Source: Hydrurus foetidus (taxonomy: Eukaryota). From it: a stretch of 64,000 bases of DNA. The notes beneath the pieces are model-generated. The model was not told the origin of the DNA, did no database searches, and worked only from the letters and a program-made list of their open reading frames with translations. Position 1 is the stretch's first letter. Each line of letters starts with the position of its first letter. The translations under genes and the position numbers were made by a program. The stretch is taken from NCBI GenBank assembly GCA_900617105.1, contig UYFQ01000046.1, positions 1 to 64,000 of the forward strand, given 5' to 3'. Below, in pieces: positions 1,132-64,000 of this stretch.

Positions 1132-1209
1132 GATTGCAGGGTTCTGAAAGTTGAGGAAGGAAATTCAGAATCCTGGAATCCACGGCAATCGTTTAATCAC
1201 TATAAACAA

Positions 1210-31138: not shown

Positions 31139-31162
31139 TATTACAACAATGCACTTTTCATT

Positions 31163-35880: not shown

Positions 35881-36171
35881 ATTCTACAGGAAAAACTATA
35901 TTCAATGAACCAATACTCAGTGTTTGATACCTTAACTATAAAGTTGTAAGTCAACGATGCCATTGATTCATCCTGCGTTAAGGAGGATTAAGTGTATTTA
36001 GTACGAATATACTCTTATTAAGTTTTTCATTCAGCAATGTGTAAATAATTAATTGTCATCGAAATAACTCATGAGCTGTCTTATGTTGCTGAAGTACTTC
36101 ATCATCATTCTATTTACAAATAAATGCGATCAGTGATTGATGGTTAGAAAGACAAGACTGAACGTACGTCG

Positions 36172-36952
36172 CGTACTTACACATGTTAGTGCATACTCAT
36201 TTATGCATACGTACACACATGTACTTACACATGTACGTACATAGTCAATTTGTACGTACGTACGTACGCCCGCACGCATGTAGCATAGCGTACACTTGTA
36301 TGGTCACGTACACACGTACGTGCACATGTTGGTACAAATTAGTATATGCATACGTACACACACGTACACACACGTACTTACACATGTATGTACATATCTA
36401 ATATGTACGTATGTACGATCGCCTATAGCGTAGTACATAGATGTATAGGCGTACATACGTAAGTACTCCTGTACTTGCGCATGTACGTTCTTATACATAC
36501 ACATGCATACGTACTCCTATAATATCGCCATATAGCAGTTAGTACTCACGCGTGTACGTTCATATACATATACACGCATACGTACCCCTGTACTATCGCC
36601 ATGTATCAGTTAGTACGAACCCTCTGACCTCACGCAAATGAACGTTCGCCTTTCATGATTCTTCAGTATCGCCAAAACACTTCGTTACTATAAGCATTCA
36701 TGCAACGTTCCTCAAGCACATGCTATGAACAACACATCTCGCTGTGAACTTTGTCTCAAGGTAGTTTCATTGTCATGAACTGTTTCGATAGCTCTTTTGC
36801 GTGGCTATCTGTAAACTCTAATCAGAATTTAATACGTTGTACTTCACAGCTTCGTCTACTCGATAGCTCACTGAATTGAGACAGTAGCCTGCAGCTGCTT
36901 CTCCACCTTCGCTGCGAACGCTAGAAGGTGACATCTTGTATTTAGTCTTACA
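36172..36952 (+). repeat. Copia copy 2 5' LTR, lacking its first 155 bp or so
   Basis: Match to the 3' LTR starts only at CGTACTTAC (equivalent to 43897). Ends in CA, followed by PBS TGGTAGCGA. Confidence 0.88.
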
Positions 36953-37039
36953 TGGTAGCGATTGTTTATAGTGATTAAACGATTGCCGTGGATTCCAGGA
37001 TTCTGAATTTCCTTCCTCAACTTTCAGAACCCTGCAATC

Positions 37040-40000: not shown

Positions 40001-43000
40001 AACCCCTGAGCCATATCGAATGCGCACTCCACCAGCCAAATCACCATCAAGGGATTCAGTGTCTGCCACACGTCGTGCAAAGGCAAGAGCACTGGCTGAG
40101 AAGAAGAGTCTCAACTTACTTACAGTTACAGACAAAGACAGCAAATTCATGTCATTCAAGAAGACAAGTCACAAGACAGTCATTGACAGTGGTGCATCTA
40201 CATCTGGTACTGGATTGCGCAGCAGTCTCCGTGACCTTAGACCTACATCATGCAGTGTCTCAGCAGCTTTCGGGGAGACTGCCCAGCCTACTGAGATGGG
40301 ACTACTCCCACCATTCATGCTCAAGACTATTGTCATTGACCAAATGAATGATACCACACTGCTCTCAGTGTCTCAAGCGTGTGCAAAGGGATTTGTGGGC
40401 ATCTTCACCTCTAAGGACTGCAAGTTCTTTAATGCGATAGATGTCATCCCACACCTCCAGACATTTCAAAGACAGCTCACCCAGTTATGAGTGGCAAGGT
40501 AGAGGAAGGCCTCTACTTGCTGGACTCCAACTGAGTGCAACCAGCTCAACTCTTGGTCACGAGTGTAAAGGAGCTTTCGATTTACGACCACGTGCATCGC
40601 GTACTAGGACACCCTGGCGAAGAGGGTATGGCCTGGCACCGACAGCACACCATTGGAGCACACTACTCCAACTTGGATGCATCTACACCAAGACCAATAT
40701 GCGCAGCATGCGTACAGGGCACGATGCGACAGACCTCTACGGACCATCTTCGTATACACCGTTTGCCATCTCCTTGCTACGGCAGTCAATTCTCACTTGA
40801 CGCGTATACACATACACACCGGTCACAGGCCGGTTATAAGTACTGCGATATTATCACGGACTTATCTACAAGACGAAGTTATCCATGCTTCACGAAAGAC
40901 CGGGGAGCTGCAGAACTTGTCAAAAGCTTCTCCACCCTCTTCCAATCACATCCTGAGTGGAAGCCCTCGCTTCCAGGCGTAGACCGATTCATCAGAGCCG
41001 ATGCAGAGAAATCTTATCGGTCAGCTGAATTCCTTCAATGCCTACACAACTTCGGATATCGACTTGAGCCAACACCACCTCGCGACAAACATGCAAATGG
41101 AATCGCAGAACGTGCAGTAGGCGTCTTATCGATGAAGTGCAACATCACCATGCAACCTTTAGGGATGACAGTACCACAGAAGTTTTGGGATCTTGCCTTT
41201 GAGTATACATGCATCACCCATGCATTCAATTACCATTCAGCAATCAAGACATCACCGTATCATCTCATCACTGGAAAGCATGTAATCCTCAAGAACCTCA
41301 AGGCCTTTTGGAGCTTATGTTGGGTTCACATCGCGCTTGAAGATAGGAAAGGAAAAATCGGTTTTCCTCGTGCATACAAAGCCAGATTCGTTGGTTACGA
41401 TTTATCGAGAACGCTCGAGCCTTGTTTTAAGGTCATCGAAATACTACCAACCGGAATCTTCGGCAAAATTAGGACAAGTAAGGACGTCATTTTCGACAAA
41501 GACAATAATTATAATTACACGGACGAGTACCCATCCGATCTTGACTTTTCTAATTTACACCAGAATATCAATAACGATATCTCTGCAGTCCTACCAGCTA
41601 ACAAGGTAGTTGAAAAAGATTCTGAACAACAACTAGCAACTCCAGCTATTCCAATACACCCTGTACCTGTAATACCTTGCATTATTCAGAATCGAACTCC
41701 TGAAAATCCTATTCCAGCGAAAATACATCCAAATGTGATTAACAATAACAAAATTGTTAATAAATCTGGATCGACTAATATCAAATCAACAAAACAGAAT
41801 ATACCGTTTGATCCAACACCAATTAGAGATACAAATAACAAATCCGACATCGATGATAATGACATTGGTATTAATACACCGATTCAAAACATTGAAAATG
41901 ACGATGCTGTCTACTGGTACTCTACTCATGTTAGAAATCACGAACATTTTCTCTCATTGATTGAAGCAAGTCATCACGAAAAACTATTCATCAATTTCGA
42001 TCAACTCAATGTGCCAAAATCATTCTGGAAAGCTATGGCTATACCTGAATGGAAAAACGCAATAGATACTGAATTAAAGAAATTCGAGAAGAACTCATGT
42101 TTACATGTAGTACCATACATTGACCAACACCTGGTACCAATGATGTGGCTTTTTAGTATAAAAACCGACGGTACGAAAAAGGCCCGTTTAGTGGGACGGG
42201 GAGATATGATGATACCACTCGTGGACTTCGACCCCGACGCCGTATACTGCGGAAATGTATCATCGTGTTCCATCAAGATGGCACTAAGCATTGCAGCAGC
42301 ATATGGACTAGTAATGAAAGGAGGTGACCTCATTGGTGCTTACCTCATTACAAGAGCAAATGTTAACTTCCCGGTGCACATAAAGACACCGCAGGGATAC
42401 ACTTGCCCACCCGGTTTCTGCTTTCAGGCTGTCGGCAATCTTTATGGATTCCCACCTGCAGGGCAAAACTTTTCCATAGAGTTTGATATTTGTATCTTCG
42501 AGTGTGGTTACAAGAACACACCCTGGGACCTCAAGTTCTTCTTTAAATGGACCACAGATGGTAGACCCATGCTTATCATCGCTCACAGTGATGACTTCAG
42601 ATGGTTTGGTCCTTCGGACAAACTTGATGAATGGGATCTGATCATCGCCACCTTCAATGCACACAAATATGAAGTCACTGATGCAACTGACAAGGAGTTC
42701 GTTGGTATTCGTATTCAGCGTGATGAAGATGGCACATATTATATGGATCAACATCGCATGATTGATTCAATAATAAAAGAGGCTAATATATCTGGTGCAA
42801 AGGACATGCACTTACCATACCCGACTGGGGACCAAGAACCTGCATTGTCGAAACTAGACAACGCTTCTACCCCTGAGGAACGTATGCAGTGTATGAAGTA
42901 CCCGTACAGGAGGGTCGTGGGTCAACTAATGTACGGTATGGTACATACCATGGTCGGCATTCTGTATGCACTCAATGTACTATCCCGTTATGGTAACAAC

Positions 43001-43609
43001 CCAGGTCCCAGACATATTAAATTCCTCAAACACTTATTGCAGTACTGCAAGTACGCACGAAGTGATCGACTAGTGTTCCATGGACACGATGGACCCAGAG
43101 ACATCGAGACTATGACAACGCTACTCCAACTCCGGTTTCAATGCGATGCAGATTTGGGTGGTAATCCCGACAATAGCCACTCCCAGACTGCATACCTTGG
43201 ATACCTCGGCCGTAACCTTATCTGCTGGTGTTCCACCGACCAAGGCAGCATATCAACATCAACGGCAGAGTCGGAAATCAAGGCTGTCAACCACACACTC
43301 AAAGCAGAGGTCATAGCCAACAGAGGCATCCTAAACATGATGGGATGGGTCCAAGGTCCAACCTCTATTGAAGAAGACAACCAAGCCTGTATATACCATT
43401 CTAAGGCAGCACACATGACACGCAACCTACGGCACCTCGACCTCACCGAAAACTGGGTCAAAGAGAAGGTTGCTGATGGTACTTGCGTAGTTGTTAAAGT
43501 TAAATCGTGCGATAATAATTCAGATATTGGTACAAAAAGAGTTTCTCTACCAATATTTAATAAACTTCTAAATCAAATTATAGATCAGTCTCAGAGACGA
43601 AATCTTTAA
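37040..43609 (+). pseudogene. gag-pol: Copia gag-pol polyprotein with frameshifts (about 37475, 37557, 40455-40535) and an in-frame TGA at 38760
   Basis: CCCH finger CRRHIAGLCTNGSSCKYSH; protease VIDSGAS; HHCC HVHRVLGH..CAAC; integrase SLDAY/RADAE/NGIAER; RT KKARLVGRG and AHSDDF; RNase H CDAD/AESE/EDNQ. Copia domain order. Confidence 0.92.
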
Positions 43610-43741
43610 ACAGCACTATACTAATTATGTTTTAATATTGTATTTGTCTTGATCACACATATACTATGTTAATTCTAATATCATAAAGGTAGCTCATAAG
43701 TAAACATGCATTATTTTACACTACATCTTCACTACGGGGAG

Positions 43742-44284
43742 TGTCAGACCACTTGATTATATCAAGATATTTCTGTAGTAATATAGTTACAAATATAGTT
43801 GCAAATATAGATATAAATAAAATATACACATGTACGTTATGCGGCATGTACCTACGTAAGAACACATGCAGATAAGATAACATGCACACGTACACACGTA
43901 CTTACAAATGTTAGTGCATACTCATTTATGCACACGTACACACATGTTCTTACACATGTACGTACATAGTCAATATGTACGTACATAGTCAATTTGTACG
44001 TACGTACGTACGCCCGCACGCATGTAGCATAGCGTACACTTGTATGGTCACGTACACACGTACACACGTACGTGCACATGTTGGTACAAATTATTATATG
44101 CATACGTACACACACGTACACACACGTACTTACACATGTATGTACATATCTAATATGTACGTATGTACGATCGCCTATAGCGTAGTACATAGATGTATAG
44201 GCGTACATACGTAAGTACTCCTGTACTTGCGCATGTACGTTCTTATACATACACATGCATACGTACTCCTATAATATCGCCATA
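43742..44284 (+). repeat. Copia copy 2 3' LTR, left fragment
   Basis: Begins TGTCAGACC after the PPT and breaks at GCCATA, where the transposon B TIR starts. Confidence 0.9.
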
Positions 44285-46033: not shown

Positions 46034-48661
46034 TTACAAACTCTCTATAAAATTCATTGCCTCTGTTATCTCATGATCGTATTCTAACATGGCACTATCA
46101 TATTCTAACATAAAATTGATCGTAGGTATTTCTCCATTTGTCTCATCTAACGCAATGTCACTAAAGTCAACACTGTTATGACTGGAGGTTGAAGAAGTCC
46201 CAGTAGGTATAACCTTCATTGTGCCACATAAATTATGTTTTGAGTACGGTTGAAAGATTGGTTGTGACACATCGCTATCATCTAATGGAACACAACCTGT
46301 ACTTATGAATGACCTTTTTACTCCTTCAGCAAATTTCATCTCTTTGAATCCACCAGCTAAAAGATCGAATAGATCTTGAATGCCTTGGAGCATCTTGGGT
46401 TTAGGGGGTTGAAAGACAGGTAACGTACGTTCATGTACATCTTTTGCTGATTCTTCTTCGTACTTTTTTTTAAAAGCCTGGAAACTTTCCACTATTCTAG
46501 CTCCTCTCAAATTTCTTGTGTGTGCTTTCAGAGGCCCATTAACAACCAAATCTAATACTTGTAGAACACCTGTCATATTGGGGGGCAAACAAGCTATTTG
46601 TACACCTAACTCACTGATTACCTCATCAACCATATTTGTTTTGTGACATCCACAATTGTCAAACCATATCATTAACTTTCCTAGCCTTGATTTCAGTGGT
46701 TTTACAACAGTTTCTAACCACATGATCATTCTAACTGTATCGTTCCATGCCTTGAACTGACTAGTTATAACATGACCTGTAACTTTGTTAATAATATAGT
46801 AACATGCATGAGTATTTGTCACACCTTTTATTGTCAACTCTTTTGTCCACTTAATTAGATCCCATTCATCATCTACACCAAATCCTTTATTCTTTTTATG
46901 GAGGTCCTGTATAACCCTCATCCCTGATTGGTCTGGTCTTTCTTCTGAGCTAACTGAGTGTTTAATGATAATGAATAAAGGCACAAACTCGGCATTACCA
47001 CTTACCGCTACAACCGCTGTTATGCCAAGCATCGTATTAGGTATACCAATATTCTGAGCGCGTTGTTGGTCGGGTGGACAGTACATGTATTCCGGGCCTA
47101 TCGCGTAGGTAAACGCTGTTTCATCCATATTTATTGTTGTATCTCTGGTGTGTCCAAAGTCTTTGTACATTGATTGACCGATTTCCATTATCCTCTTTAT
47201 TTCTTCATCTGATGGTACATTTTTATCATCAGTCGTTATCTTTCTTCTACGCATGTTTGCCCGCGTCAAAAATTTTCGAACCCATTTTGAACTGAACTCA
47301 AGAGCTTGTATTTTATCATCATTAATCTACCTATCACCCGCTTGAACAGTCTTTGCAGCTTGTTCGATTATTGCATAAGTGTAAACGACACTGACCAGGA
47401 TACGTGGAACGTTGGTGAGGACAACCTCAACCTATCAAGATAGACACACGTACGTACGTTCGATATCTTAGTATTTGAGTTAGCAAAACGTGTATATACA
47501 TTACTGTGTAGTAAGATGCAGATCACTCACAAAAATGATAACAGATTATTTGATGTAATAAAATGATGTATCACGGTGAATTTTGATGATACTTACATTT
47601 TTTTGCTCAAATTCACATATCATTAAATTACCCCAGACATCAGCCTCGAATTCCACAGAGATCTTTCTCCCACATGTTTTTTTCATCACATCCCTTTTGA
47701 CTACCCACCTCACTATTGTTTCCATAACAAGTTCAGAATATCTTGCATGTTTAATTAAAATTTCCTTGGTGTGAGTAGCTGTCACAATATTATTAGCTCT
47801 GTATTTTTCACCCTCTAACTCACTGCGAGCTGTAATTATAGCATCAAATAATGAGATAACCAGCTGTATCCCATGCAATTTGAACCTTATATTTTTATTA
47901 GGAAACTTTCCCAGCATTTGGTGGACAGCGGAATGGTTTATTATTTGTGATATTGTCACAGTATCATCAACGTTATCGTCGTCGAATATCTTTCGCCGTA
48001 CAGCTTCTAAAGCACCAGCGCTTCGCGATGTAGATTCTTTTATTGCAGCATTGATGTATATTGTAGGTGACTCATTAGCAGCGCAAATACTATTTGACAC
48101 GAACTCATATACTTCTTTTGCGTATCTTCCCATCTGCCTGTCACCGATTTCTTCACCTTTCTTTCTCCGTTTGAACGATTCAGACTTTGCATTATTGACG
48201 TCCAGCTGATTTAACCATAATAAACCGTTAATCTCACTGATTGACAAATACTTTGAATCTGCTGTGCATGTTTTAATTAGCAATGTGTTCGCAGTACTTG
48301 TAATTTCTGTAACTAAGTAGTCACGTGACTTATCACCATTCAAATTATTTGTCCCGAACTTTATATCTGTTCCCCTGCTCCTTGCCGCCAAGTCCATGAA
48401 AGCTTCCGTTCTCATTTCTCCCTTAGAGCTAATACTAATGACGCTGCAACCAAATTCCTCGATGGTCTTCTTGAAGATGCTCAGACCTTGATGCAAGGCC
48501 AACGCATCGAATCTGAAGTTGTGGTCTTCGTAGTGATCCATCATCCGCAGCTCAGCGCTAAGAGAACCGATCGACGACTGGTGATTTACAGGCTTACTAG
48601 GACGACAAACGAGCGCTATGGCGACTGAGAAAGCGCACAATTTAACCGATAGAGATACCAT
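46034..48661 (-). pseudogene. DD35D pogo-type transposase of element B (intron 47596-47432) with one in-frame TAG at 47329-47327
   Basis: Homologous over its length to 26024-28581 (MDETAFTYAIGP, WFDNCGCH, LPPNMTGVLQVLD), with an equivalent intron position. The stop aligns with Tyr in element A. Confidence 0.85.
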
Positions 48662-48796
48662 CTGCAGTAATCGGATAAAATAGTTCAAAATTCACATTCA
48701 GAAGCGATGCAGATATGCAGGCCTGCCGGACAACATCGATTATCTAACTAGATGTACTAACAAACGCATAAATCATCGCTAGAGGTTGCTCGATCC

Positions 48797-49012
48797 TGTG
48801 GTCTCACTAGGACTCTGGGCTGGAACGGAGGGCTGCTGGAACGCGGGCGAAGGAAAGGGGGTGATGGGGCTGGTGCTATGGATAGCAAAGTGGTTAGCTT
48901 ACAGATAAACACAGCAGGTATCATGGCAATGAATCGTGTGGATCGGATCGTCCTCGATCCGATCCGAACGTACGCCTGTACCCGTACCGCCCGTACGGGT
49001 GTACGGGTCACA
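48797..49012 (-). repeat. Gypsy A 3' LTR (216 bp)
   Basis: Identical to 56100-56315. Confidence 0.96.
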
Positions 49013-49326
49013 GTGCCCCTCTCTATCTAAAGGGGTGTACTAACTAACAAAATTCATCATCAAAATACTAACTATGAATAGATCCTAACTATTGAAAAAC
49101 TATTTCAGACTGAAACCGGAAGTTTCGTACTGAATAAACCTCCATAAAACCCGTTGGAATTCAATGTAGGAGGAATCTTTATGATTTAGTGAATCAAAAT
49201 GTTGTGTTTTGGTTTTGGTTTTGTTTTTGTTTTTGTTTTGGTTTTGGTCTTTTTTTTTTTTTTATTTTATTTTATTTTATTTTATTTTATTTTATTTTAT
49301 TATTATTTTTTTTTATATGATATCGG

Positions 49327-52300
49327 TTATCGGTAGTTCGCGATGAATTCGCGTGGTATTAAATGTTTAAGGTTCTTTTTTATCAAAAACTCATATACTT
49401 TTTGCGACTTGCGCATATGTGTCCACGGTTCCCAGGTGTTGTGTTCCTGAGTATAGTTGAGCCATTTCACATGAAATGTGAGTGTTTTGTAAGCTCGAAT
49501 ATTACCTTTCATTTCTAAAATATCTTCGATGAAGAATTCTAGGTAGTCCCTACGAGCTATATCGGTTGGGTCTACATGAGTTGGGTCGAATTGGAAAGGT
49601 TTTAATTGTGTCATGTGGTACACTTTTTCTTTATGTGTTATTAGATCGAGTAAAGTATACTCTGCGAAGTTGTGACTGACAACTCGCATCGGACCACGCC
49701 ACAGTGTGTGCATGCGTGTTTCCGGTGTTGTTCGCTGTTGCACAAGTACATATGTATCGACTCCAAATTGTGTGATGTTGGGTGATTGTTGTGCATTGTG
49801 GATGTCGTCTGATTCTTTGAGTAAACGTGCAGTGATTTGGATAAGTTCATCCTGCAACGTCAACATTGTATCTGTTGATTTCGATAGTGAATGGGATTCC
49901 AAATCGATTTCGTCTCGCGGGAGTAGGATATTGGCATCGAGGTCGATAGCGTTGCCATAGATGAGTTGTGCAGGTGATACTTTCATACGGTCGTTTACAG
50001 TTGAATTTAGTATTCTTTGTACGAATGGTAGTATTTCCGCGTAATTTTCCGTTGTTGCGCGTTCGTACGCGTATGCGGTGATGTGACGATTTATTTCTTT
50101 GTTGATACGTTCGACGATAGCGTTTTCTTCTGAACAGTATGGTAATATTTTGTTGTGGGTTGTACCAACAATTTTCACGAACTCATCGATAATGTGAGCG
50201 ACGAAGTGTGGGCCATTATCTGATCGAAGTATAGATGGTGTGCCGTATCGGCCCACGTGTTCTATGAGTGCTTTGCACGCTGCTTTAGCTGTTGCATCAG
50301 GTGTAGCATAGAGTTCGACAAATCTTGAAAATGTGTCGATCATAACAAGGATGTATCCTTTATCTGGGAATGGTCCGATGAAGTCAATATTAAGACATTC
50401 CATTGGTTTGTATGTTGATGTCGTGTACCTATATGCATTGATGGGATATTTCATAGCCGACATCTTTTGGCAACAAGGACAATTTTTTATGAATGTTTTT
50501 ACTGCGTCACGCATTCCCAACCATATGTTATTTGATTTTTTTAAGTTACGCAGAGTGCGTTGAACACCACCGTGTCCGACTGTAGTGTTATGACACTTTG
50601 CAATTAAGTTATATTGCTCTGTCGTCATCGGTTTGTGTGTCAGAATTGCAGCTATTATTCCTGATTTAGGTAGCATTCTGTTTTTACATAGGCGAGACAT
50701 TGCATCAGCAATTTCGTTTTGTTTCCCAGGGATATATCCTATCGTATATTCTAATTCTTGCAGGGCCATACGCCATCTGCTGACCATTTCGTTCTTGTCT
50801 TTTTCAAGGAACGTAAGATTTTTGTGGTCTGTTAGAATAGTGAATTTACGATCTCGTAGCAGTGCGTCGAGATAGGTACAGCAATAATATAGCGCGAAGG
50901 CTTCTTTTTGTATTACTGACCATTTCAGTTGAGTCTTGGTAAGAGACTTGCTTACAAGAGCGACGAGTTGTTTTTCCCCGTCGACTTCTTGATACAAATA
51001 GCCGCCTATACCGTAATCCGAAGCATCGGTCATTAGGGTTATGGGCGCTGTATCGTGTATAAAATATAGTAAAGGACTCTGTGCAATTAGATCTTTGATC
51101 TTTTGGAAAGAATTTGCAGCGTCATCTGTCCAGATAAGCAATGATTGCTTTTTCGCTGCGTGATCGATCATTTTATGCAGTGGTGCAACCACGTTAGAGT
51201 GATTTGGTACATGATCCCGAAAATAATTGGTGAGTCCGAGAAACGATCTTAGTTCGGTCGTCTTTCTTGGCATAGGAAAGTCGGTCACACCTCTTATTTT
51301 TTTGGAACTCATAGTTATACCATCTTTAGATATTTGTTTACCAACATATTCAACTAATTTTACATTTAGTTTAAGCTTTGCAGCTTTTAGTGATATGTTT
51401 TTTTCTTCGAGACGTTGAAACAATATTTCTAAACGTTCGCAGAACTCCTCAAATCCATTACCATAAACGATTATATCGTCGAGGTATACTTCACAAATGT
51501 GATATATTAGTCCCAGAAGGACTATTGTGGCCATCATTTCTTGGAAATATGAGGGAGCTCTTTTGGGTCCGAATGGTAGTCGGGTAAAGTGGTGAATACC
51601 CATAAAGGTGACGAACGCGGTGTACACGCGTGTACTCAGAGTCAGTGGGGCTTGGTGATAACCTGCAGTGAGGTCGATTACACCGAATGTGTCTGCCTTT
51701 TGTGAACCTAATCTCGCTAACATTTGTCTAATATTAGGAATTGGCCAGCTTGCTGACTCTGTTGCATCGTTGAGGTGACGGTAGTCAATACAGAATCGGT
51801 ATGAACCGTCTGGCTTAGACGCAAGTGTAACTTGTGAGTAGTATGATGCCTCTGATTTGACTATTATACCCTGTTCTAGCATAGTATCAACTTGTTTACG
51901 GATTTCAATTTGTTTCCGTATTGACGTTGGTCGGGGTGCTACACGATTCCTGAATACTTTCCATTCTGGATCCCGTACGGGTAGTCCAAACGGTGGAATA
52001 CGTGCAGGCTCCGGTCCGAGTTTGTTGTTGAAAAGCTTAATGTGTTCGACACAGATTGCTCTTATTTTTGCTATTTGGTCAGGGGTACCATCGATGTGTA
52101 TTAAATCGATGAGGTACATTTTATCCTCTGTTGGATTGTCTTGGAAAGGAGCGAAGGTATCCTTCGACTTGTAGTCAATCTCTTCGGGTCCGAAGGGTTG
52201 AACCTCCGGGAGTTCTTCACGCTCCCGGAGTAGAGCAGCAACTAGACCACGCGTTTGAGCTGGTGCCTTGGATGAGGGAGTTGGAGTAGCTAATTCCGGA

Positions 52301-53664
52301 CTCCTGTCGGTTGTTAAACCTAAATCACTGTGTCGGGGAGGTGACAACAAAACTGCTGCCTCGACCGTAGAGTGCACAGTGAACTCATCTAAAACAAGTT
52401 GAGCCGCTGCCGCAGCTGAACCTGTGGGACACCCGCATGATGCAGTGCATGTCTTGCTTGTACAAGCACCTCGAGCCACCAGGTCGTCTTGCCATCGACT
52501 GTCTGCGTCTGAGGGTTTTATCCCCTCCTGGCTAGTTATAACCAGAGGTATGTTGTGTGTGTTTTTATTTTGTTGCGTTGTGTCAGTGTAGGTGACGACA
52601 TGTTCAGGTTCTGCATATAGCAGCTGTACTGGAATAGTTGTAAGAACGTCCGTTCTCGACTTTTGTAATTGTTTTGACGTCGGATGTGGAAGAAGTTCTG
52701 TTCCGATTTGATCTACATTTTGGAAGAATTCTGGAAGAATTTTTACCAGGTTGAGATCTTTGATTGTTTTTAATCCGAGGATTAAATCGACTTTGGAGTC
52801 TTCCGCAATTCGGACAGGAAGAGCGAAAGTGTATTTGAGAAAATCTTTTTTAAATGATACAACAATATCAAGCACATGTGTAGATTCAATACATTGATTA
52901 TTTAGACCGGAACACATCCATAAGGGAGTGTCCGTTGTGCGCAAGTGGGGTTCGCCTTGCAGGCCCCGAAGGACTCTACGGTTGACTACGTCCCCAACTT
53001 GGCATCCGGTGTCGAGTTGTGCGAGAGCGGCCAAGTCGTTACTTGGGCTCGTATTTGTTGGAGGAGGAGGATTTTCCGGAGGTGTTGTTGTCGTCCCGGC
53101 GGTTGTCTTTGTCTTTCGCCGAGTCGCGCGACTCTTCCTTGCGGGAGTTGTCACGGTCGCGATCGTTAGCGCGGTGGTTGGGACGGTAACCGGGGATCGG
53201 ATCTGTGGTAGAGATATTGTTACTTGTAAGTAATCGTCTATGTTTTCAGGTAATATCGCTGATAGTAGTTGTGTCATGTTTGGAATTTTCTGACTGTCGT
53301 CAGAATGCAATGTATGCGCGTCAGTCAATGACAACTTACTTTTGCCTTTGTATCCGAACTCTTGGCCGGTTTTGTTGTTGACGTTTCTGCGGCTACGGTT
53401 TGCGTCACGATCGGTGTTGCGGTCGTTGGCGTTGTTGTTGTTGCGTTCGTTATCGCGATCGTTGTTGGTACGATCCGACTTCGCATTGTTGTTGTTGTCG
53501 TTGTTGTTTTTGTTATTGTTGCGTTTGTTTTTGTTTTTGTTGTTTTGGGGTTGTTTCTCTGGACCCTTGTCGGTGGTGTCTCCTTCCGTGGGATAGATGT
53601 ATGTGGACGCTCCATGATTGATGGTAGTTTGCGTCATTACCCCGTTGAGGTAGACGTTTGGCAC
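49327..53664 (-). CDS. pol: Gypsy A pol (Asn-rich segment, protease, RT, RNase H, integrase, chromodomain)
   Basis: LDTG; DLTAGYHQ and YLDD; TDASDYGIG; H..GH..CPCCQ, IDFIG, SDNG, VER; C-terminal FHVKWLNY..EHNTWEP. Confidence 0.95.
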   Translation of the reverse strand: MPNVYLNGVMTQTTINHGASTYIYPTEGDTTDKGPEKQPQNNKNKNKRNNNKNNNDNNNNAKSDRTNNDRDNERNNNNANDRNTDRDANRSRRNVNNKTGQEFGYKGKSKLSLTDAHTLHSDDSQKIPNMTQLLSAILPENIDDYLQVTISLPQIRSPVTVPTTALTIATVTTPARKSRATRRKTKTTAGTTTTPPENPPPPTNTSPSNDLAALAQLDTGCQVGDVVNRRVLRGLQGEPHLRTTDTPLWMCSGLNNQCIESTHVLDIVVSFKKDFLKYTFALPVRIAEDSKVDLILGLKTIKDLNLVKILPEFFQNVDQIGTELLPHPTSKQLQKSRTDVLTTIPVQLLYAEPEHVVTYTDTTQQNKNTHNIPLVITSQEGIKPSDADSRWQDDLVARGACTSKTCTASCGCPTGSAAAAAQLVLDEFTVHSTVEAAVLLSPPRHSDLGLTTDRSPELATPTPSSKAPAQTRGLVAALLREREELPEVQPFGPEEIDYKSKDTFAPFQDNPTEDKMYLIDLIHIDGTPDQIAKIRAICVEHIKLFNNKLGPEPARIPPFGLPVRDPEWKVFRNRVAPRPTSIRKQIEIRKQVDTMLEQGIIVKSEASYYSQVTLASKPDGSYRFCIDYRHLNDATESASWPIPNIRQMLARLGSQKADTFGVIDLTAGYHQAPLTLSTRVYTAFVTFMGIHHFTRLPFGPKRAPSYFQEMMATIVLLGLIYHICEVYLDDIIVYGNGFEEFCERLEILFQRLEEKNISLKAAKLKLNVKLVEYVGKQISKDGITMSSKKIRGVTDFPMPRKTTELRSFLGLTNYFRDHVPNHSNVVAPLHKMIDHAAKKQSLLIWTDDAANSFQKIKDLIAQSPLLYFIHDTAPITLMTDASDYGIGGYLYQEVDGEKQLVALVSKSLTKTQLKWSVIQKEAFALYYCCTYLDALLRDRKFTILTDHKNLTFLEKDKNEMVSRWRMALQELEYTIGYIPGKQNEIADAMSRLCKNRMLPKSGIIAAILTHKPMTTEQYNLIAKCHNTTVGHGGVQRTLRNLKKSNNIWLGMRDAVKTFIKNCPCCQKMSAMKYPINAYRYTTSTYKPMECLNIDFIGPFPDKGYILVMIDTFSRFVELYATPDATAKAACKALIEHVGRYGTPSILRSDNGPHFVAHIIDEFVKIVGTTHNKILPYCSEENAIVERINKEINRHITAYAYERATTENYAEILPFVQRILNSTVNDRMKVSPAQLIYGNAIDLDANILLPRDEIDLESHSLSKSTDTMLTLQDELIQITARLLKESDDIHNAQQSPNITQFGVDTYVLVQQRTTPETRMHTLWRGPMRVVSHNFAEYTLLDLITHKEKVYHMTQLKPFQFDPTHVDPTDIARRDYLEFFIEDILEMKGNIRAYKTLTFHVKWLNYTQEHNTWEPWTHMRKSQKVYEFLIKKNLKHLIPREFIANYR

Positions 53665-55544
53665 GAAGTGAGGGTGGCCGATTCGGCGGAAATCGGCTGA
53701 CTCCGGTGACTGTGACCGGTGTGTGTTGTCACAGCCGGTGACTGTGACCGGCTGACTCCGGTGTGTGTGTTGTTACAGTGTGTGTTCATGAAGAGTGTAC
53801 GCGTGTAACGATTGTGGCCGACGACCCCACACGTGTGGCATGTGTTGGTGGAGCGACTGAGGCCGTTGTGTTCGTAGTCCTGTGAACGTGAGAACATGCT
53901 TTTGTATTGGGACTGCGGCACGTACTCGTTGGGTGGTGTGTCGGCCTGTTCCCTTAGGGTGAGTTTTGTTTTGAAGTGGTATAACAATCCACCCATGTTT
54001 TGTGCGTCCTCAACTGTTCGGCGGGATTTCTGTAAACAGATGTTGAGGCGCTGAATCATGTCGGGGATGTTATCCTTCTTTTTCCCTTTGATGTATTTTT
54101 TGGTTTGGGCCATGAAGTTGTCGGTGAATTTGTTGTTGATGGGTAGCTTCTTGTAGAAGATTTTACACATGTCATCATGTGTTGTTGAGTCAATCAGAGA
54201 ATATTCGCTGTAGTGTCCCAAGATGATGTCTCGGAACTGCGCGATTGAGGCGTCCTCGAGGGATTCGTCTTGCCAGCAAAATTCGAATTGGAAATTTTTT
54301 AAAGATAAATCCAATTCGAATGTTGTCAGCGTACGTTTGTTATCGTAGTAGATTTTTTTAAGATCTTCTGCGATTTCCTGAAGGGTGAGTGTCCCCGAGG
54401 GGAGTTCGGGCCAGGCTTTACACTCAGCTCTGGTGTAACCGGTTTCCTTCATGTGTTTGACTAACCGATCTTGGATCGATAGTCTCGCCTCTTTCTCAAT
54501 GACTTCGTCCCATTTGGATTTAAATCCCGGGCGATATGCCTGTTGGTAGAAAAGGCGTGCTGCCTTATCCATTCCACCAAACAGGGCTTTTCGGTCCAAC
54601 ATGAAAACCTCTCTCATATTAATGAGTGAGGTGGATATTTCTCGGGCTTCCTTTTGGGGGTCGCGGGACTCATAGACGAGATCTGTGTCATCTTGTTTGC
54701 GTTTTCGAATAGGTTTTTCAGCTGTCGGTTTAGACGCGACTGATGTTACCTTTGCTTTTGCTGATGATGTAGATGAGGATGATGATGATTTGTCTTGTTT
54801 GGTAGCCCTTGCGGGCTTCTTCTTCGCCAGAGGCTTGATAGCCAATGGTTTAGATTTTTTAGACTTGACGACAGGGAGTTCGACAGCGTCTGAGTTTGAC
54901 TTGTCGTCGTCGTTATCGTCTTCCTCGTTGTCGTCGTTGTCTTCATCATCATCCTCGCCGTTGTCGTCGGCGTCGTCATTGGTGACGTCGTCGTCGGCGT
55001 CGTCAGTGTCGCTGTTGTCGTCATCGTCCTCGTCCTCCATCATCGTCGTCGTCGTCGTCCTCCTCAGACGAGGAGTTGTCGTTCTTTTCCTCCTTCTCCT
55101 CTTGCGACTGTTTAACGTCTTGGTTGTTGTTGTCGTCATCAAGAGGAGTTGGTGGGGTGACTCGACTGACTGATAGGGGCGTTGGTTTGTGTCGACGGAT
55201 GCGACGAGGTCCCTCATTTCTTCCTCGTCAGCGCCAACTTTGTCTGCCCATTCTTGCAGCTTAGCAATGCGTTCGCGTTCTGCGATGCGCATTTTATTTG
55301 CTTCGCGCTTGGTTATCTTGCCGCGAGCGGCTTCGTCTTGAAGACGTGTTGGGGTATCTCCGACTCGGATGGCTTCCTTAGCCAGAGCCGCAGTGGATTT
55401 TTCGACATTGCGGAGGAGTTCCCGCTCCGCTGCTGCGTGTTTTTGCCTCGCAGTTTGCGGAAGCTGGCGCTGGTCGGATGGGTTTGAACCCTCAGAGATA
55501 GCATCGCTAGAGCTCCGTTTGTTGGCATTTTTGCCTTTGGCCAT
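53637..55544 (-). CDS. gag: Gypsy A gag (acidic and Lys-rich N-terminal half, degenerate Zn knuckle); local frame disturbances
   Basis: Long ORF between the 5' LTR and pol. Likely start MAKGKNANK at 55544. CHTCGVVGH near the end. Confidence 0.75.
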   Translation of the reverse strand: MAKGKNANKRSSSDAISEGSNPSDQRQLPQTARQKHAAAERELLRNVEKSTAALAKEAIRVGDTPTRLQDEAARGKITKREANKMRIAERERIAKLQEWADKVGADEEEMRDLVASVDTNQRPYQSVESPHQLLLMTTTTTKTLNSRKRRRRKRTTTPRLRRTTTTTMMEDEDDDDNSDTDDADDDVTNDDADDNGEDDDEDNDDNEEDDNDDDKSNSDAVELPVVKSKKSKPLAIKPLAKKKPARATKQDKSSSSSSTSSAKAKVTSVASKPTAEKPIRKRKQDDTDLVYESRDPQKEAREISTSLINMREVFMLDRKALFGGMDKAARLFYQQAYRPGFKSKWDEVIEKEARLSIQDRLVKHMKETGYTRAECKAWPELPSGTLTLQEIAEDLKKIYYDNKRTLTTFELDLSLKNFQFEFCWQDESLEDASIAQFRDIILGHYSEYSLIDSTTHDDMCKIFYKKLPINNKFTDNFMAQTKKYIKGKKKDNIPDMIQRLNICLQKSRRTVEDAQNMGGLLYHFKTKLTLREQADTPPNEYVPQSQYKSMFSRSQDYEHNGLSRSTNTCHTCGVVGHNRYTRTLFMNTHCNNTHTGVSRSQSPAVTTHTGHSHRSQPISAESATLTSCQTSTSTG

Positions 55545-56099
55545 CTTGAAAAGTCGTCGGCAGTTGGATCGATGGCGCTTCCTGTCTTGGTCAGCAACGG
55601 AACTCGGACGCTCTGCTAAATGATCAGTAGGATGTGCTCCTTCGAAAGAGCTGTTGGTGGTATGTTGGCGGCTGTAAAAAGTGAAGATTAGATTAAGATG
55701 CTTTCCCCCCGATTTCGGGAGAAAATTGATGGAAAGTTGAATAGGACGGTGGAGCTCGCAGGACACGAAGTTGGGCGCGACGTCTGTAGGCTTTCGTTTA
55801 CGAACGAATTTGATGTTTTCACTTGCTTACAAGTTACTCGCTTGCGTTGTCCTTCAAGTTTTGAATGGAGCAACGATTTAAGTCGGAAAAAGTCGTCGAG
55901 ACGAAATTTTTACTGGAAGCGTTTCAGAGGCTGTCGCCTTGACAGAGCCTTTGTAGTGTGTTTTTATGATGTTTTCACTTATAAAAGTTACTCGCTTGGT
56001 GCGGCACGCCTTTGAAAAGGACGCTGCCGACTTTTTTTTTTGGATGTTTTTGGAAGCTGGTCTCGTAGAGAGATCCTAGCTGATTCCAAATACCGGTAT

Positions 56100-56315
56100 T
56101 GTGGTCTCACTAGGACTCTGGGCTGGAACGGAGGGCTGCTGGAACGCGGGCGAAGGAAAGGGGGTGATGGGGCTGGTGCTATGGATAGCAAAGTGGTTAG
56201 CTTACAGATAAACACAGCAGGTATCATGGCAATGAATCGTGTGGATCGGATCGTCCTCGATCCGATCCGAACGTACGCCTGTACCCGTACCGCCCGTACG
56301 GGTGTACGGGTCACA
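56100..56315 (-). repeat. Gypsy A 5' LTR (216 bp)
   Basis: Identical to 48797-49012; followed on the plus strand by TSD ATCC. Confidence 0.96.
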
Positions 56316-56607
56316 ATCCAAACGATTTCTCATTATTGAGTCCCAAACATGGTTGTGTCAAAAAGTGGTCGATGTCGCGGCATCCCGATTTTTTCGATCA
56401 AATTTCACCTTTCGAATTTTTTGACAGAGGACGGCAGAGAACTTGAATGGACTCGTTGGAAACACTGGTTGCTTTGCAAGAAGATGGAGAGTTGACTGAT
56501 ATTGTGATCGATGAATGGCTACGGTTCGATGTTTTCATGGTGACTAAATATTGGACGTAAAAGTGTCCTAAATCACAGAAACTCCGCAAACATAGGGTCG
56601 GCGACGG

Positions 56608-56953
56608 TATAGCAGTTAGTACTCACGCGTGTACGTTCATATACATATACACGCATACGTACCCCTGTACTATCGCCATGTATCAGTTAGTACGAACCCT
56701 CTGACCTCACGCAAATGAACGTTCGCCTTTCATGATTCTTCAGTATCGCCAAAACACTTCGTTACTATAAGCATTCATGCAACGTTCCTCAAGCACATGC
56801 TATGAACAACACATCTCGCTGTGAACTTTGTCTCAAGGTAGTTTCATTGTCATGAAGTGTTCCGATAGCTCTTTTGCGTGGCTATCTGTAAACTCTAATC
56901 AGAATTTAATACGTTCTACTTCACAGCTTCGTCTACTCGATAGCTCACTGAAT
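56608..56953 (+). repeat. Copia copy 2 3' LTR, resumed fragment, cut again about 75 bp before its end
   Basis: Matches about 36531-36876 and diverges after CTCACTGAAT. Confidence 0.9.
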
Positions 56954-57082
56954 CAATTTTCTCGTACGCGCACAACGATAAGGACGAAACATACGAAATA
57001 ATGAATCCTATTTTGGTCTACGAGAAAACCTAAAATTCGTTCTCGTAAATGGGCCGCGATAAGGAATAGCCTAAATTAAGAT

Positions 57083-57846
57083 TTAGGAGATGCCGCCACG
57101 GCAGCGCAGGTTCTCTGGCGTGGAAGGAGCAGGGACCGCTGACCGGAGCCGGACCCCTCAGGGACGGAGATAGGGGGGAATACCACGGGACAACGCCACG
57201 CGGCAAACGGAACTTGGACCGCTACCCCATGTCGTGTTATTAGCCTCAACGTAGTTTAGTTCGTCACAACATACATTTGAAAAAGAGGGTTCAAATGCGA
57301 TGGATGGAAATTGAAGTGTTTGTTGATGACAGCACACTGTCACAATTATTTGAAACGCCTGATTTCAAGGAGATCCATCATCGTTCAATTCACCCCGTAG
57401 CCAGCCATTCCTACAGGGATATTATAACGTTTACAATGAATTTGTTGTTTGATGTTACCTGATCACTTGCGTGTCAGCTGGTGAAGAGCATCCTGACCCA
57501 AGGTCTGCCCCTGCGACCCCGACCCCAAACCCCAGTCTGGGCGGGGGAAGGGTGACCAAATAGGCTAGACGCGCAAGCGACACCACCCGTAAGTTAACAT
57601 TATCAACGCATTCGTTTAAAGCAATCCGGCCTTCCTTTCGTGCTCGGCAAGCGAGGGGCGTAGTAGGAGTGGAGCACGACAGGGAGCCCGGAAACCAGTA
57701 TTACCCAAAGGGGACAGGACACTGACAGCAGAAGAGAGTTAGGAGATGCCGCCACGGCAGCGCAGGTTCTCTGGCGTGGAAGGAGCAGGGACCGCTGACC
57801 GGAGCCGGACCCCTCAGGGACGGAGATAGGGGGGAATACCACGGGA
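57083..57846. repeat. 108-bp identical direct repeat (57083-57190 and 57739-57846; spacing 656 bp) of an unidentified element
   Basis: TTAGGAGATGCCGCCACGG...GGAATACCACGGGA occurs twice. The second copy is cut by gypsy B. Confidence 0.88.
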
Positions 57847-58042
57847 TGTGGTAGTTCCGGGTCCAAGGTCCCGATCCTACCGGATAGTACTACGGTACAC
57901 TACTCACCGTACACTACAGTCTGTTGTATCGTCGTAGTTACCTACAGCCTCCACGTAGAAGTTAACCCTAGCTTCTAGCTTCACGCTGTAACTAACCTAC
58001 CTCCTCTAGCCTTTCCCTCTTCCTTTCCCATCCAGAGCCACA
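57847..58042 (+). repeat. Putative 5' LTR of gypsy B (196 bp, TGTGG...CCACA)
   Basis: 5-bp terminal inverted repeat. Shares CTGTAA(G)CTAACC and a pyrimidine-rich 3' part with LTR A. No second copy is available in the window to confirm it. Confidence 0.65.
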
Positions 58043-58603
58043 ATAGCGCTATTACCGCTCATCCCTCTTCACTTTCTTTTCTAAAATCTACTTGGCCTAT
58101 CTATAGATAGACTTCCAACGGAGTAGATATACTCCACGACTTCCGAGGAGTCTCCGAAGCTCCGAGAACGTAGTTTAAGTTTACGAAAGTTTGGCATAAC
58201 CGCTTTCCTCTTGGAACTCCTCGAAAGGCATTTCCAAAAGTTCGTTTCTGGTCGAAGTCGCGAGAGCCTTCCCAACTCGAAATTAAGGAGTCTTCCGTTT
58301 GCAATTTGGACACTGGATCCATTGTTAGAGACATCAGATTAGTCTAAGGACGTCTTTTTGTCAGCAGGAAGTTCCTCCTTCATCCTCAAGAGGACCTCAA
58401 ATTTTTCACCACTCGAAATTCGGCTTTCTTGCCATAGAATGTGTCTCGAGAAGAGTTGGTTGAAATTCGATTATTCGCTGTTATTTGCGTAAAGTATCCA
58501 TTAAGCGAACGAGGCGAAGCTCTCGCAAATTTTTTTGACGAGGAACGCTCGTCCTGGCTTCGATGTAACTCGATTTATATCTCGATTCATCTTTCGATAA
58601 GAG

Positions 58604-61600
58604 ATGGCAGAGAATTCTCTCGATCCTGAGCCTCGGCCGAATCCGAGAGATAACGAATATGAGAATGAGGAAGTAGTGGATGAAGGAGGAAATGTCCTTA
58701 ACATCTCACAAAACTCACAATCGTCAAGTCTGGGTTTCCCACAGACGTTACAGATCCAGCGAGAGATATTCGTCCTACGAGGAGATTATATCACTCCGCA
58801 GGACGTTGAAGACTTTTATGAGCAAGCTCAACGCATACCTCATCTGCGCATTAAAGAATGCATGCAGCGTCAAGCAATCGATTTGCTTCATGTGACGATC
58901 ATGACTGATCAGTCGACTCTGTCAGTTATTACCAACGAGCAGAGACTTAATTGGCAGAACCTCCTCCCGATAGAGAGTGTTGCCACGTTGGTAATGCAAT
59001 ACTTTTGCACAAACAAGCAAGGGGATCATACCTTAGCAGAACTGTTTGCTAGGGTCCCGTTTCACTACTCTCTTTCCTCTGATGAGGAAGAGTTAGTAAC
59101 GTACATGGCGTACAAAGACATCGCTACCGATCACGAACGTGTCCGTCGTATCACTACTTCACAGCACGACGAATTGATTTCGATTCTAGAGAAACGACTT
59201 CCTCGAGGGAGTCGCATCCTAGTGGATTACGTAACCCACAAGTCAAGGGACAACGAGTCTCCTAAGACGTGGGAAGTCGCTATATGGCCGTATTAATGCA
59301 GTCGTTACTGCGGCACGAGAGACAATCCGTATGAGCAGGAGTTATGGCAACCCTGACATTGTCTACTCGTTTCCGAGTACAGCAGTACCTCCTCCCCGTT
59401 CGACGAAGAAGCGGGCGAGTACACTGGCGATACGTGATTTGGATACCCCAAGTGGGAGTAACAACCTGACGGTACGTTCGTCTACAGACGTATCGTTAGT
59501 GGCCACTGCCCGGGTCTGTCGCTCGTGCGGCAACCCTGCACATATTCTTAACGAATGCCCAGTCTTGTACTACACCGACACCAATAACGATCATAACTGT
59601 AACTGGTCGGATTCGGTTGTAGGTAAGGCATGGCTAGCACAAGGTGAAGTTATGTGGTAGGAGAGACTCATCTTACCTGGGTACGAGACCAGGGAAAGAT
59701 ACCACCCTGCGGGTTCGCCACCGTACTTAATGTGCGACAGCAAGAAGCTGAAAGGCAACCAATGTGAGGGAAAAGGGTCCAACCCAAACCAAGGCAACCA
59801 AAACCAAGGTTTCGAAAACCGCGGGAATCAAAACCAAGGTAACCAGAACCAAGGTTACGGTAACCAAAACTACCATAACCGCAACCAAGGAAACCCCGGT
59901 CTTGGGGGTAACCAAGGTAGTGGTAGAGGGTACCAGGGGAAGAATCCCCGAGGGGGTAAATACAACCCGCCCCAAGGGGATTACAATGCGAACGCCGGCT
60001 CCGCAAACCAACAAGGTATATATGATCATGATGTCAATTCATCTGATACCACTGACATACAGCATTCAGTATCATGCGGTACTGCATCTGTCATTTCAGC
60101 AATTCTTCTCGATGAATTTCAGCATGACCCATCAACTCTACCTCCTGATCACTTACACGTTACGGTTTTGGTACAGGATAAGGATAAGGATAAGGAGCGC
60201 CATTCTAGCGTACGACGCACTGTGGGCAAGGCCGTACTCGACACCGCCAACTACTCCGAGGATTTTATTTCTTTCACGATGATTAAAAAGATTGATGCTA
60301 TGCATGACTACTATGCGGCTCCTACAGCCATTACTGTTTGCTCTGGTCTCGATGGCCAGTGTTATATAAATAACGAAATGATTGATTTAATTCTTAAATT
60401 TCATTCTTATGACGGCGAGTGTCATACTATTCCTTTAACAATGCGGGTTAATAGGAACACAGATATTGAACTTTTATTAAGTCGAAAAACTGTAAATAAA
60501 TATGATTTTATGTCATTAACACCTTTCGCTTTTGGTATTTCTCCCGAGCTTAGTGCTGAGAACAAAAGGAAGCGTGATGCTCGTTGGCTCGAGTTTGAAG
60601 AAAGGGAAGCGATAGCCAAGCTCGACCCGCTTCACTGGCACAAATATACCAGACGTATGATATCTGAGGGTTTCGTACCCGAAGAACCGGAAGTAGAGTC
60701 GATTACCCCAACATACGATATGTTGAAGGGTATCACAAAGGCAAAACTTTCGGATCGGAGAGAACCATACGGTCTATGCCCAAGGCCAACACCTAAGAAG
60801 GCCATTCTGCACGCACCTCTAACCAAGGAAGTCGTGGGGTCAGGCTGTCATACAACGTTCACGTGTAACGTTACCCAGGATGGTACCAAGGGAGTCGCGA
60901 CCCAAAGTCCATGTGGTGATGTGGGTTGTGAGCGACTGGACAGTGTCACGACTGTACTCGCGAAACGTACGGGTGATACCCCGCACCTAGATGGTGACTC
61001 GATTCCCATCCTCACACATACCTCTGGGGACACTGTTACATCAGACTATGACGCGGAAGCCATATGGCCAAGCGGTGTCGCACTCTCCGTTGACGAGATT
61101 GACGATGATAAAACTGATACCTTCGCACCTTTCTTGCGTGACAAGACGTGCCGGAATGTACCGCCCAATGGGCCGGATGATTTTGTCTCAGATTCATTTT
61201 GAAGGAGATGAAAGCCTTCAGAAGGATCTTCGTACTCTCTGTTCTGAATTCGCTGATATATTCAGTGATAAGCTAGCTCCGCAAGCTGCTGACCTCAAGC
61301 CGTTTGAGATAAACCTGCCACGGCAGAAATGGGAGGTTCCATCGAACCACGCACCAGTGCGACCCCAATCCTCTAAAAAAGGAACATTACCTCCGCACTT
61401 CTATCGAAGAGATGTTGGAAGATGGTGTGATCGAGAGGTCGAACGCTGCATACTACAGTCATCCTGTAATGGTAAATAAGACAGCCGATACATATCGAAC
61501 CTGCATCGATTATCGCGCACTCAATGAATGCATTGAGCCGGCCTCCTTTCCACTACCAAATATCAAACACCTCTTTGAGAGGATCGGTAATCGAAAACCG

Positions 61601-64000
61601 GATATTTATGGGGTGATGGATTTAACCGCGGGTTACCATCAAGCTCCTTTATATACACCCCACCGAATCTATACGGCATTTATATGTTTCATGGGGTGTT
61701 TCAATTCACAAGATTGCCTTTTGGCCCTTGTCGTGCCCCCTCTTACTTTCAAGAGCAGATGGTGACAACGGTCCTTCACGGTCTCATATACAGCTGTTGC
61801 GAGATGTATCTCGATGATTGCATTGTATATGGCCGGGGCGAAGCAGAGTTTCTTTTGAACTTGAGGAAAGTCTTTGAGAGATTTAGACTTAAAAATCTTA
61901 AACTCAAAGCAAAGAAATGCCGATTCGGTCTTAAACGTATCGAATACGTTGGACGAGTCATCGACAAAGATGGTTTATCCATGTCGAAAGAAAAGATTGA
62001 GACAGTTCTCAACTTCCACTTCCAAAAGAAGTTACGGCATTACGGGGATTCCTTGGCTTAGCCAATTATTTCCGTCAATTCGTTCCTTTTCACTCAGAAA
62101 TGGTAAAACCACTTCACATGATGGTGGACCCAAAGGCGGTTAAACGCTCACCAATTTTTTGGACCCTCGAAGGGACAAACGCATTCAATGAGACAAAGAT
62201 CGCGGTATCTCGTTGTCCATTGATGTATTTCATCGATGATCACCCATCAGATTATATACTGATGCATCTGATTATGGAATCGGTGGTGTATTATTCCAAG
62301 TCATTAATGACGAATGGAAACCAATTGCTTTTATTAGCAAATCTCTATCTGCAACTCAGATAAATTGGTCAACAATACAAAAGGAGGCTTATGCTATCTT
62401 TTATTGCTGCCAACAACTCGATTATCTTATTCGAGACAGAAAGTTCACTATTCATACCGATCATATGAATTTGACTTATATGAAACAGAACCCTACTTCG
62501 ATGGTAGCACGGTGGTTCATTGCAATGCAAGAACTCGATTTCACCGTTCATTTTGTTAAAGGATCGGATAACGAATTAGCCGATGCGCTGTCACGGTTAT
62601 GTCCGAATCTTACTGAGATTGCTCTACCGATGACAATCACCAGAGATGTTTAACATCATCATCTTCATCTTCTTCAACAAGTGTGGCGGCTTTAACGGTT
62701 TTCGAACCGGCCACAGATGAACAAATACTTCATATTCAAATGTGCCACAATGCAATTGTTGGTCACAACGGTGTCGACCGTACCCTCACTCGACTGTACA
62801 GTCTAAACCAAGTGTGGAAAAATATGAAACAGCACGTACGTTCGTACATACGTAACTGTCCCTGTTGTCAAAAACTAAGTGCGGTTGATGCGAAAATCAA
62901 TGCAGCTCATTTTTCAACTTCCACTCACGCAATTTTCGATACGTTGAATATTGACTATGTGGGTCCTTTCCCCGATAAGGGGTATATTCTCGTCATAATT
63001 GACACCTTCTCCAGATGGACAGAAATGTTCTGGTGTAAGGACGCTACTGCCGAATCTGCAGCGGAGAGTTTATTAACACATTTTGGTCGATTCGGTTCGC
63101 CAAACATGATAAGATCGGATCGTCGATCCCATTTCGCTTATGATCTCATAAAAAAAGTTCTTAGATCTTACGAGTACACCCCACAACCTCACACTATCTT
63201 ACTCCTCTCAGGAGAATGCGATTGTTGAACGAGTCAACAAAGAGGTAAATAGACATTTAAAAGGACTGGTGTTCGATACACCATCTCTTGTCCATTATGC
63301 AAAATGCATTCCGTTCGTACAACGAATTATTAATAGTTCAGTTAATAAACGTGCGGGTGCAAGTCCGGCATCTATCCTATTCGCGGATGAACTTGATTTT
63401 ATACAGGATAATAGAGGGATTTTAACACCTCATTTGTTACCAATGGTAACATCTTCAAATTCAACATACATTGCTGATTTAATCGTAATACAGGACAAAG
63501 TCCTCGATGCAGCAATGTGAATAAAAATACTTCATAAATGTGATGAAAAACACAAAAAGGCAACATCCGGTTAGACAGTGTTCCCTGTAGGGTCGTATGT
63601 CTTAGTAAAAGATAAACACCCTCCAACTCGATAGCACACAAAATGGAGAGGTCCTTTCCGTGTTGTATCCTTTGAAGGATCCGAGTATGTTCTCGCGAAC
63701 TTAATTACACATAAACACAATAGTGTACATGTGAAGAATCTTAAAATATTCAATTATGACCCTTCGATGGGCTTACCTGCTGATACAGCACGTCGCGATT
63801 ACATGGAGTATTTCGTTGAGAAAGTTCTTAATCACTCGGGTGATAAAAAGAAACCGACTACGATGTCGTTCCATGTAAAATGGCTCAACTATGATGACTC
63901 ACATAATACATGGGAGCCTTGGAAGAATCTCCGGCTCTGTGATGCACTCCATGTATACTTGAGGAACAATAACATGTCGCGTTTTGTTCCCAGGAATATT
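58604..64000 (+). pseudogene. gag-pol: Gypsy B gag-pol broken by many frameshifts and stops
   Basis: CRSCGNPAHILNEC knuckle; VLDTA protease; MDLTAGYHQ and YLDD; CHNAIVGH..CPCCQ; IDYVG; chromodomain FHVKWLNYDDSHNTWEPW near 63870-63925. Confidence 0.88.

Follow-up and report, generated by a model that had tools for sequence, protein, structure and literature searches.

LTR retrotransposons prime reverse transcription with a tRNA, with tRNA halves or with their own 5′ end, and several lineages are without an explained primer. The closest published case to the one described here is the Conserved Hairpin Site of the fungal GalEa elements (Ty1/copia). This 10-nt palindrome lies right after the 5′ LTR, includes its last A and takes the place of a tRNA primer-binding site (PBS); its mechanism is given as unknown (PMC5445492; the papers cited here were available in part, and what we say of them refers to those parts). 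Its centre occurs in two versions related by a paired change (CTGATCAGT, CTAATTAGT), and a second inverted copy, CHSeq2, lies 12–41 nt downstream; the authors bring up Tf1 and DIS and arrive at no model that fits (PMC5445492). In the Tf1/sushi group (Tf1, Tj1, Tosmo), chromodomain Ty3/gypsy elements have no tRNA site, carry stems around their own site and take the primer from their own RNA, a cut being needed to free its 3′ end (PMC4600332, 10.1101/2022.12.06.519325); this priming requires a cleavage site (PMC4600332). Tf1 uses the transcript's own 5′ end as primer, in cis, on a PBS that lacks palindromic symmetry (PMC5445492). Two further chromoviruses, Skipper of dictyostelids (PMC5006619) and SM-Tcn1 (PMC2864245), lack both a tRNA PBS and a Tf1-type partner. 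Their priming is unexplained, and the available text does not describe their polypyrimidine or T-rich tract as palindromic. Finally, Ty3 (PAL6), Ty1 and retroviruses (DIS) have short self-complementary 5′ sequences that pair two genomic RNAs; these sequences accompany a tRNA PBS and have no fixed register with the LTR end (PMC11381356). No paper describing a palindromic site of priming in gypsy elements was found in a search that took in few subscription papers and neither Repbase Reports nor supplements, and an earlier description is possible. The sequence of letters 'palindrom' does not occur in the available part of PMC10886601, and those of PMC5348765 and PMC13148404 hold nothing on primer sites.

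The stretch of Hydrurus foetidus DNA analysed here (64,000 nucleotides, the window) contains two chromodomain Ty3/gypsy elements, A and B, which are 50% identical in the RT–RNase H–integrase region. As in GalEa, a palindrome immediately follows the 5′ LTR and includes its last A, and a tRNA PBS is lacking. It is a perfect 12-mer in each case, AATACCGGTATT in A and AATAGCGCTATT in B. The earlier note on this DNA had placed both palindromes at the same position, overlapping the last LTR base, and the coordinates and LTR ends bear this out (Table 1). Perfect 12-mer palindromes start at 40 of the 63,986 positions of the window, so that their presence at two LTR ends is not due to chance.

Table 1. 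Features of the two gypsy elements (window positions).
Feature	Position	Strand	Remarks
Element A 5′ LTR	56100..56315	-	216 bp, TG...CA; 100% identical to 48797-49012
Element A primer-site palindrome	56089..56100		12 nt, perfect; opens at 56100 (minus strand), the final base of the LTR
Element A gag-like ORF	53637..55826	-	729 codons stop to stop; overlaps pol
Element A pol	49327..53772	-	RT, RNase H, integrase, C-terminal chromodomain
Element A polypurine tract	49016..49028	-	3 nt ahead of 3′ LTR; read from sequence
Element A 3′ LTR	48797..49012	-	216 bp, 100% identical to 5′ LTR
Element B 5′ LTR	57847..58042	+	196 bp, TGTGG...CCACA; loose contig ends at both borders
Element B primer-site palindrome	58042..58053		12 nt, perfect; left edge on the final base of the LTR
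Element B U5 end and leader start	58035..58060	+	predicted pairing around the palindrome (GAGC/GCTC); folding prediction only
Element B gag-pol	58601..64000	+	broken across several frames; RT 61313-62061, integrase 62617-63228, chromodomain-like end

Element A is a Ty3/gypsy LTR retrotransposon by its LTRs, TSD, polypurine tract (PPT) and RT–RNase H–integrase order. Its pol matches the Pfam families RVT_1, RT_RNaseH, rve, Integrase_H2C2 and Chromo, and its best PDB match is Ty3 Gag-Pol. The chromodomain at the integrase C-terminus (PF00385, E 5.7e-7) makes it a chromovirus in the broad sense. RVT_1 and the gypsy domain order set the elements here apart from GalEa, which is copia. No Pfam family matched the gag-like ORF. 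Where this ORF overlaps pol (53637-53772), a short peptide motif is repeated, for which a frameshift and a local duplication are candidate readings; many relatives have a single ORF of about 1,800–2,000 codons. The element is young, its LTRs being identical, and is flanked by a TSD of 4 bp (48793-48796 and 56316-56319, ATCC on the plus strand), as compared to 5 bp in GalEa (PMC5445492) and in 93.4% of plant LTR elements (PMC6317226). The identical LTR pair and the TSD together fix the LTR end, so that the palindrome begins on the last LTR base. No palindrome is present at the junction of the 3′ LTR with the host.

The pol region of element B runs to the end of the window, and its 3′ LTR and TSD lie beyond position 64000. 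The chromodomain-like stretch at its end, read by eye, is similar to that of A. At the LTR start, public contigs have loose ends before 57846/57847, with purine-rich, PPT-like letters upstream (run X1). At the LTR end, three of four runs have contigs with loose ends behind 58042, and their flanks are unlike (agreement 0.54–0.55). The divergence of these contigs after 58042 fixes independently of the palindrome an LTR end that had first been put forward as putative. In family copies, positions 58035-58053 showed neither variant nor indel among the rows listed in all four runs; 58034, 58054 and 58065 vary. A 112-bp direct repeat (99%; 57079-57190 and 57735-57846) ends exactly at the insertion point of B.

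A protein search for relatives scored 7,988 candidates and gave 1,209 matches; identity over the region is 50–78% for the best 120. Element A, aligned with 66 of these 120, was used to fetch metagenome loci. From the best 80 of at least 133 confirmed stretches, 59 loci were obtained and sorted by hand. An LTR-internal junction was found in 37 of them, while 15 had no LTR end in view and four showed an LTR with a host flank (L004, L021, L032, L044). The remaining three are ambiguous (L023, L051, L054): they have an LTR start without an anchored palindrome, may or may not be host junctions, and count against the model proposed below. The 37 loci yielded 39 junctions, 10 on circular contigs, 12 upstream of gag-pol, nine followed by a plus-strand ORF and eight whose internal status came from leader similarity or from the palindrome itself.

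Every one of the 39 junctions carries a palindrome of 10–14 nt, perfect in 35 and with the outer pair alone broken in four. Conservation of the palindrome among relatives, which the earlier note had put forward as a test, is therefore complete for its inner part, perfect at 41/41 junctions when A and B are included; the whole site is perfect at 37/41. The broken pair is always the outermost one, which holds the LTR base. There are 19 distinct sites, mostly longer than the 10 nt of GalEa (PMC5445492): 12 nt at 35 junctions, 14 nt at five and 10 nt at one. Whether 10, 12 or 14 nt long, the site has its left edge on the LTR end, though at 32 of the 41 junctions the palindrome was already known when this end was assigned. 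Nine of these 32 end in TA and not CA by the palindrome register, without confirmation from a second LTR (L002, L006, L007, L008, L009, L012, L033, L037, L038). In seven families (nine junctions: A, B, L003/L005, L027, L031/L020, L034, L041), the LTR end was fixed without the palindrome, from a second LTR copy with another flank, and the palindrome was found on the last LTR base every time; the chance of such a start is 0.0036 per A position. Among the 33 representatives (one per 90% cluster and site), four have no LTR start. In the 29 others, an anchored palindrome 100–450 nt after the LTR start was seen at 29/29 loci, as compared to 3.8 expected from shuffled loci. None of seven 3′ LTR/host junctions has such a palindrome. 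Overall, a self-complementary site of 10–14 nt stands in place of a tRNA PBS in these chromodomain Ty3/gypsy elements.

The absence of a PBS starting with TGG, first noted for A and B, extends to the whole set, with no TGG within 8 nt of the LTR end at any of the 41 junctions. ARAGORN found no tRNA gene in the window. Rfam over 55500-58700 returned nothing beyond a chance-level miRNA match (E 0.27), and a Skipper-type polypyrimidine tract after the LTR is not present at the listed sites. A host tRNA, tRNA half or internal fragment could nevertheless prime at the site or, in A, at the TGG just behind the palindrome. tRNA halves do prime some copia lineages without TGG (PMC6317226, PMC10886601), and TGG comes directly after the site at six of the 41 junctions, A included. 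However, this TGG is missing at +12 from the 35 others and is predicted to pair with the CCA of U5. As 19 different tRNA matches would be needed, all happening to be palindromic, we find this explanation hardly credible.

Covariation was analysed in the representatives, 28 of which have 12-mers. Eleven different central tetramers occur in these 28, every one self-complementary, so that the compensatory change between A and B (CCGG and GCGC) reported in the earlier note is extended to a clade-wide series. Paired changes are seen in GalEa too, with far fewer centre variants (PMC5445492). With permuted halves, self-complementary centres numbered 2.6 on average and 11 at most, as compared to 28/28 observed, and with one element per 70% cluster they were found in 12/12 against a permuted mean of 1.5; these statistics are partly circular, most junctions having been located with the palindrome in view. 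The arms also change in pairs (A-T to G-C, T-A to A-T). Centres can differ between close relatives. L013 and L017 have TCGA and TTAA, although separated by tree branches of only 0.002 and 0.003, and the nearly identical families L019 and L035 have CGCG and CTAG. Double deamination at CpG was considered as a source of such changes and rejected: it could yield TTAA from TCGA, but neither CTAG from CGCG nor the lack of single-change intermediates. On these comparisons, the palindrome is real and clade-wide, and its variation marks it as under selection for self-complementarity. A centre that varies and yet stays self-complementary argues for the pairing of two identical strands and not for a hairpin loop or a protein site. 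The symmetry might still act at the DNA stage, in the second strand transfer through annealing of palindromic 3′ ends, or as the binding site of a dimeric protein. Plus-strand transfer in LTR elements anneals at the position of the primer site, in keeping with such a role. Nevertheless, a site bound by protein would have an invariant sequence or an unconstrained spacer rather than 11 interchangeable palindromic centres, and the priming of the first strand would be left unexplained. We consider a DNA-stage role quite improbable.

Priming within one RNA molecule, by a hairpin primer or by a transcript 5′ end that pairs with the site as in Tf1, was evaluated from partner searches and folding predictions. 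Tf1/sushi-group chromoviruses self-prime (PMC4600332, 10.1101/2022.12.06.519325). Stems between U5 and leader are predicted for both elements here, around the palindrome in A (CCA/TGG) as in B. Across the clade such pairing outside the palindrome is weak, beating swapped leaders in 23 of 33 representatives and in 10–11 of 16 clusters. The Tf1-type partner is absent from the LTR, in line with the earlier observation that neither LTR of the window holds a complementary copy: the longest run between a site and its own LTR has a mean of 6.6, as compared to 6.35 for foreign sites, with a maximum of 9 when G-U is allowed and 6 in A and B. Runs of 9 nt occur in L008, L012 and L059. The centres of L013 and L017 differ without a matching change in the LTR. 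A GalEa-type second inverted copy within the next 60 nt was likewise found in 0/33 representatives at one mismatch or fewer (mean mismatches 3.4, foreign sites 3.35). As for a hairpin primer, the bare 12-mers of A and B are predicted not to fold (0 kcal/mol) but to dimerize at −14.9 kcal/mol, and a loop needs no symmetry, yet 11 tetramers stay self-complementary. Intramolecular priming is thus very improbable. The earlier note had inferred a start independent of tRNA, which fits the missing TGG, the covariation and the missing LTR partner. Of the two routes it offered, pairing of two genomic RNAs agrees with the data, whereas the hairpin primer is disfavoured.

The palindrome likely pairs two genomic RNAs. 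With 12-nt flanks, the sites of A and B are predicted at about −5 kcal/mol as monomers and about −30 kcal/mol as dimers. Sites made of A and T only pair weakly (L017 dimer, −6.8 kcal/mol), which counts against dimer priming, as does the clade-wide weakness of U5–leader pairing beyond the palindrome. Pairing could serve dimerization or packaging only, as with Ty3 PAL6, the Ty1 PALs and retroviral DIS, priming being achieved by another route. A core that varies while remaining self-complementary throughout is what characterizes a dimer site, the flanked sites of A and B are predicted to form hairpins that carry the palindrome at their tip, and short 5′ palindromes drive dimerization of Ty3 RNA (PMC11381356). 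On the other hand, the dimer site of Ty3 is separate from its PBS (PMC11381356), whereas no other primer site is present here. The left edge remains on the last LTR base at every site length, which argues for priming since a pure dimer signal need not do so. We regard a signal of this kind as unlikely, though deserving serious consideration.

The model we propose, and hold with about even confidence from the sequence evidence, is that one genome of the RNA dimer, cut after the palindrome, primes the other. Two genomic RNAs would pair through the palindrome. One would then be cut just 3′ of it, and the new 3′ end would prime minus-strand DNA on the partner RNA, synthesis beginning at the last LTR base. 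In the dimer, +10 of one RNA faces +1 of the other, so that a cut there would set the 3′ end at the minus-strand start. RNase H makes the primer-freeing cut in Tf1, and by analogy the element's own RNase H may make it here. The self-complementary centre argues for an RNA:RNA dimer and against a hairpin, and the restriction of broken pairs to the outer one fits a primer covering +1 to +10. The long 5′ arm of the primer would afterwards be trimmed or removed. The primer keeps R-U5 on its 5′ side, and plus-strand strong-stop synthesis would therefore need a second cut or stop, a point against the model. This difficulty would be sidestepped if a short separate RNA of the same sequence, rather than the partner genome, were the primer. 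It might be a small RNA, a fragment that has been released, or a transcript, abortive or antisense, whose end lies at the palindrome. Any element RNA ending at +10 would pair, the site being palindromic. An antisense primer, however, would need no self-complementarity, and we consider a separate RNA unlikely. If, under priming by the partner genome, the plus strand copies the primer, a single mutation would yield a heteroduplex with two mirrored mismatches. Their repair could produce a new palindrome in one step, which would account for the rapid turnover of the centre.

We classify the site as a variant of tRNA-independent initiation with one copia precedent, its mechanism being a proposal. 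More tentatively, with a confidence somewhat short of even, it may represent a third mode of initiation for the reverse transcription of LTR elements, with priming in trans within a dimer; the palindrome would then be dimer signal, primer and primer-binding site at once. Such priming would have arisen separately in gypsy and copia, and primer copying would swap both halves of a base pair in one cycle. Were this the case, priming would be coupled to dimerization of the genome, would need no host tRNA and would be unaffected by silencing through tRNA fragments; a difference in centre would also prevent subfamilies from pairing with one another. LTR finders based on the PBS would miss such elements. 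The clean covariation set (19 sites; the 12-mers alone have 11 centres), along with a young element whose LTRs are identical, makes the question raised by GalEa testable by simple mutants.

Further observations concern the clade. In a quick tree of clade members alone, which left out L023 and L051 as short, A, B and L024 group together (support 99). Scans of viral contigs found no relatives, and the nearest Atlas clusters have few recorded taxa (Oomycota, Basidiomycota, others); an ORF of the host had no match in the Atlas. TGTAA, possibly a polyadenylation signal, lies at most 120 nt before the LTR end at 34 of 41 junctions, mostly at 45–106 nt. Short palindromes occur in the first 40 nt of many LTRs and do not track the primer-site centre. 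The contig of L015 has two different sites (509-520 and 6857-6868, centres CGCG and CTAG) with LTRs 83% alike; a chimeric assembly and a recombinant of two subfamilies are candidate readings.

Other repeats are found in the window. A copia element (RVT_2) at 36162-44283 (plus strand) has GTAC-rich LTRs ending in CCA. An inverted second copy lies at 1-2069 (minus strand) and continues after its LTR with TGTATCAG, which holds neither a palindrome nor TGG; a fragment at 56608-56953 lies between A and B. Long cysteine-rich ORFs at 16925-24046 (minus strand) and 12128-13714 (plus strand) contain 840/408-bp and 24-bp repeats and have ephrin-receptor-like/NCD3G Pfam matches. Transposase ORFs are present at 27214-28581, 46034-47326 and 29942-32086, comprising two of DDE_1 type (pogo-like) and a DDE_Tnp_4 and Myb/SANT pair (Harbinger-like).
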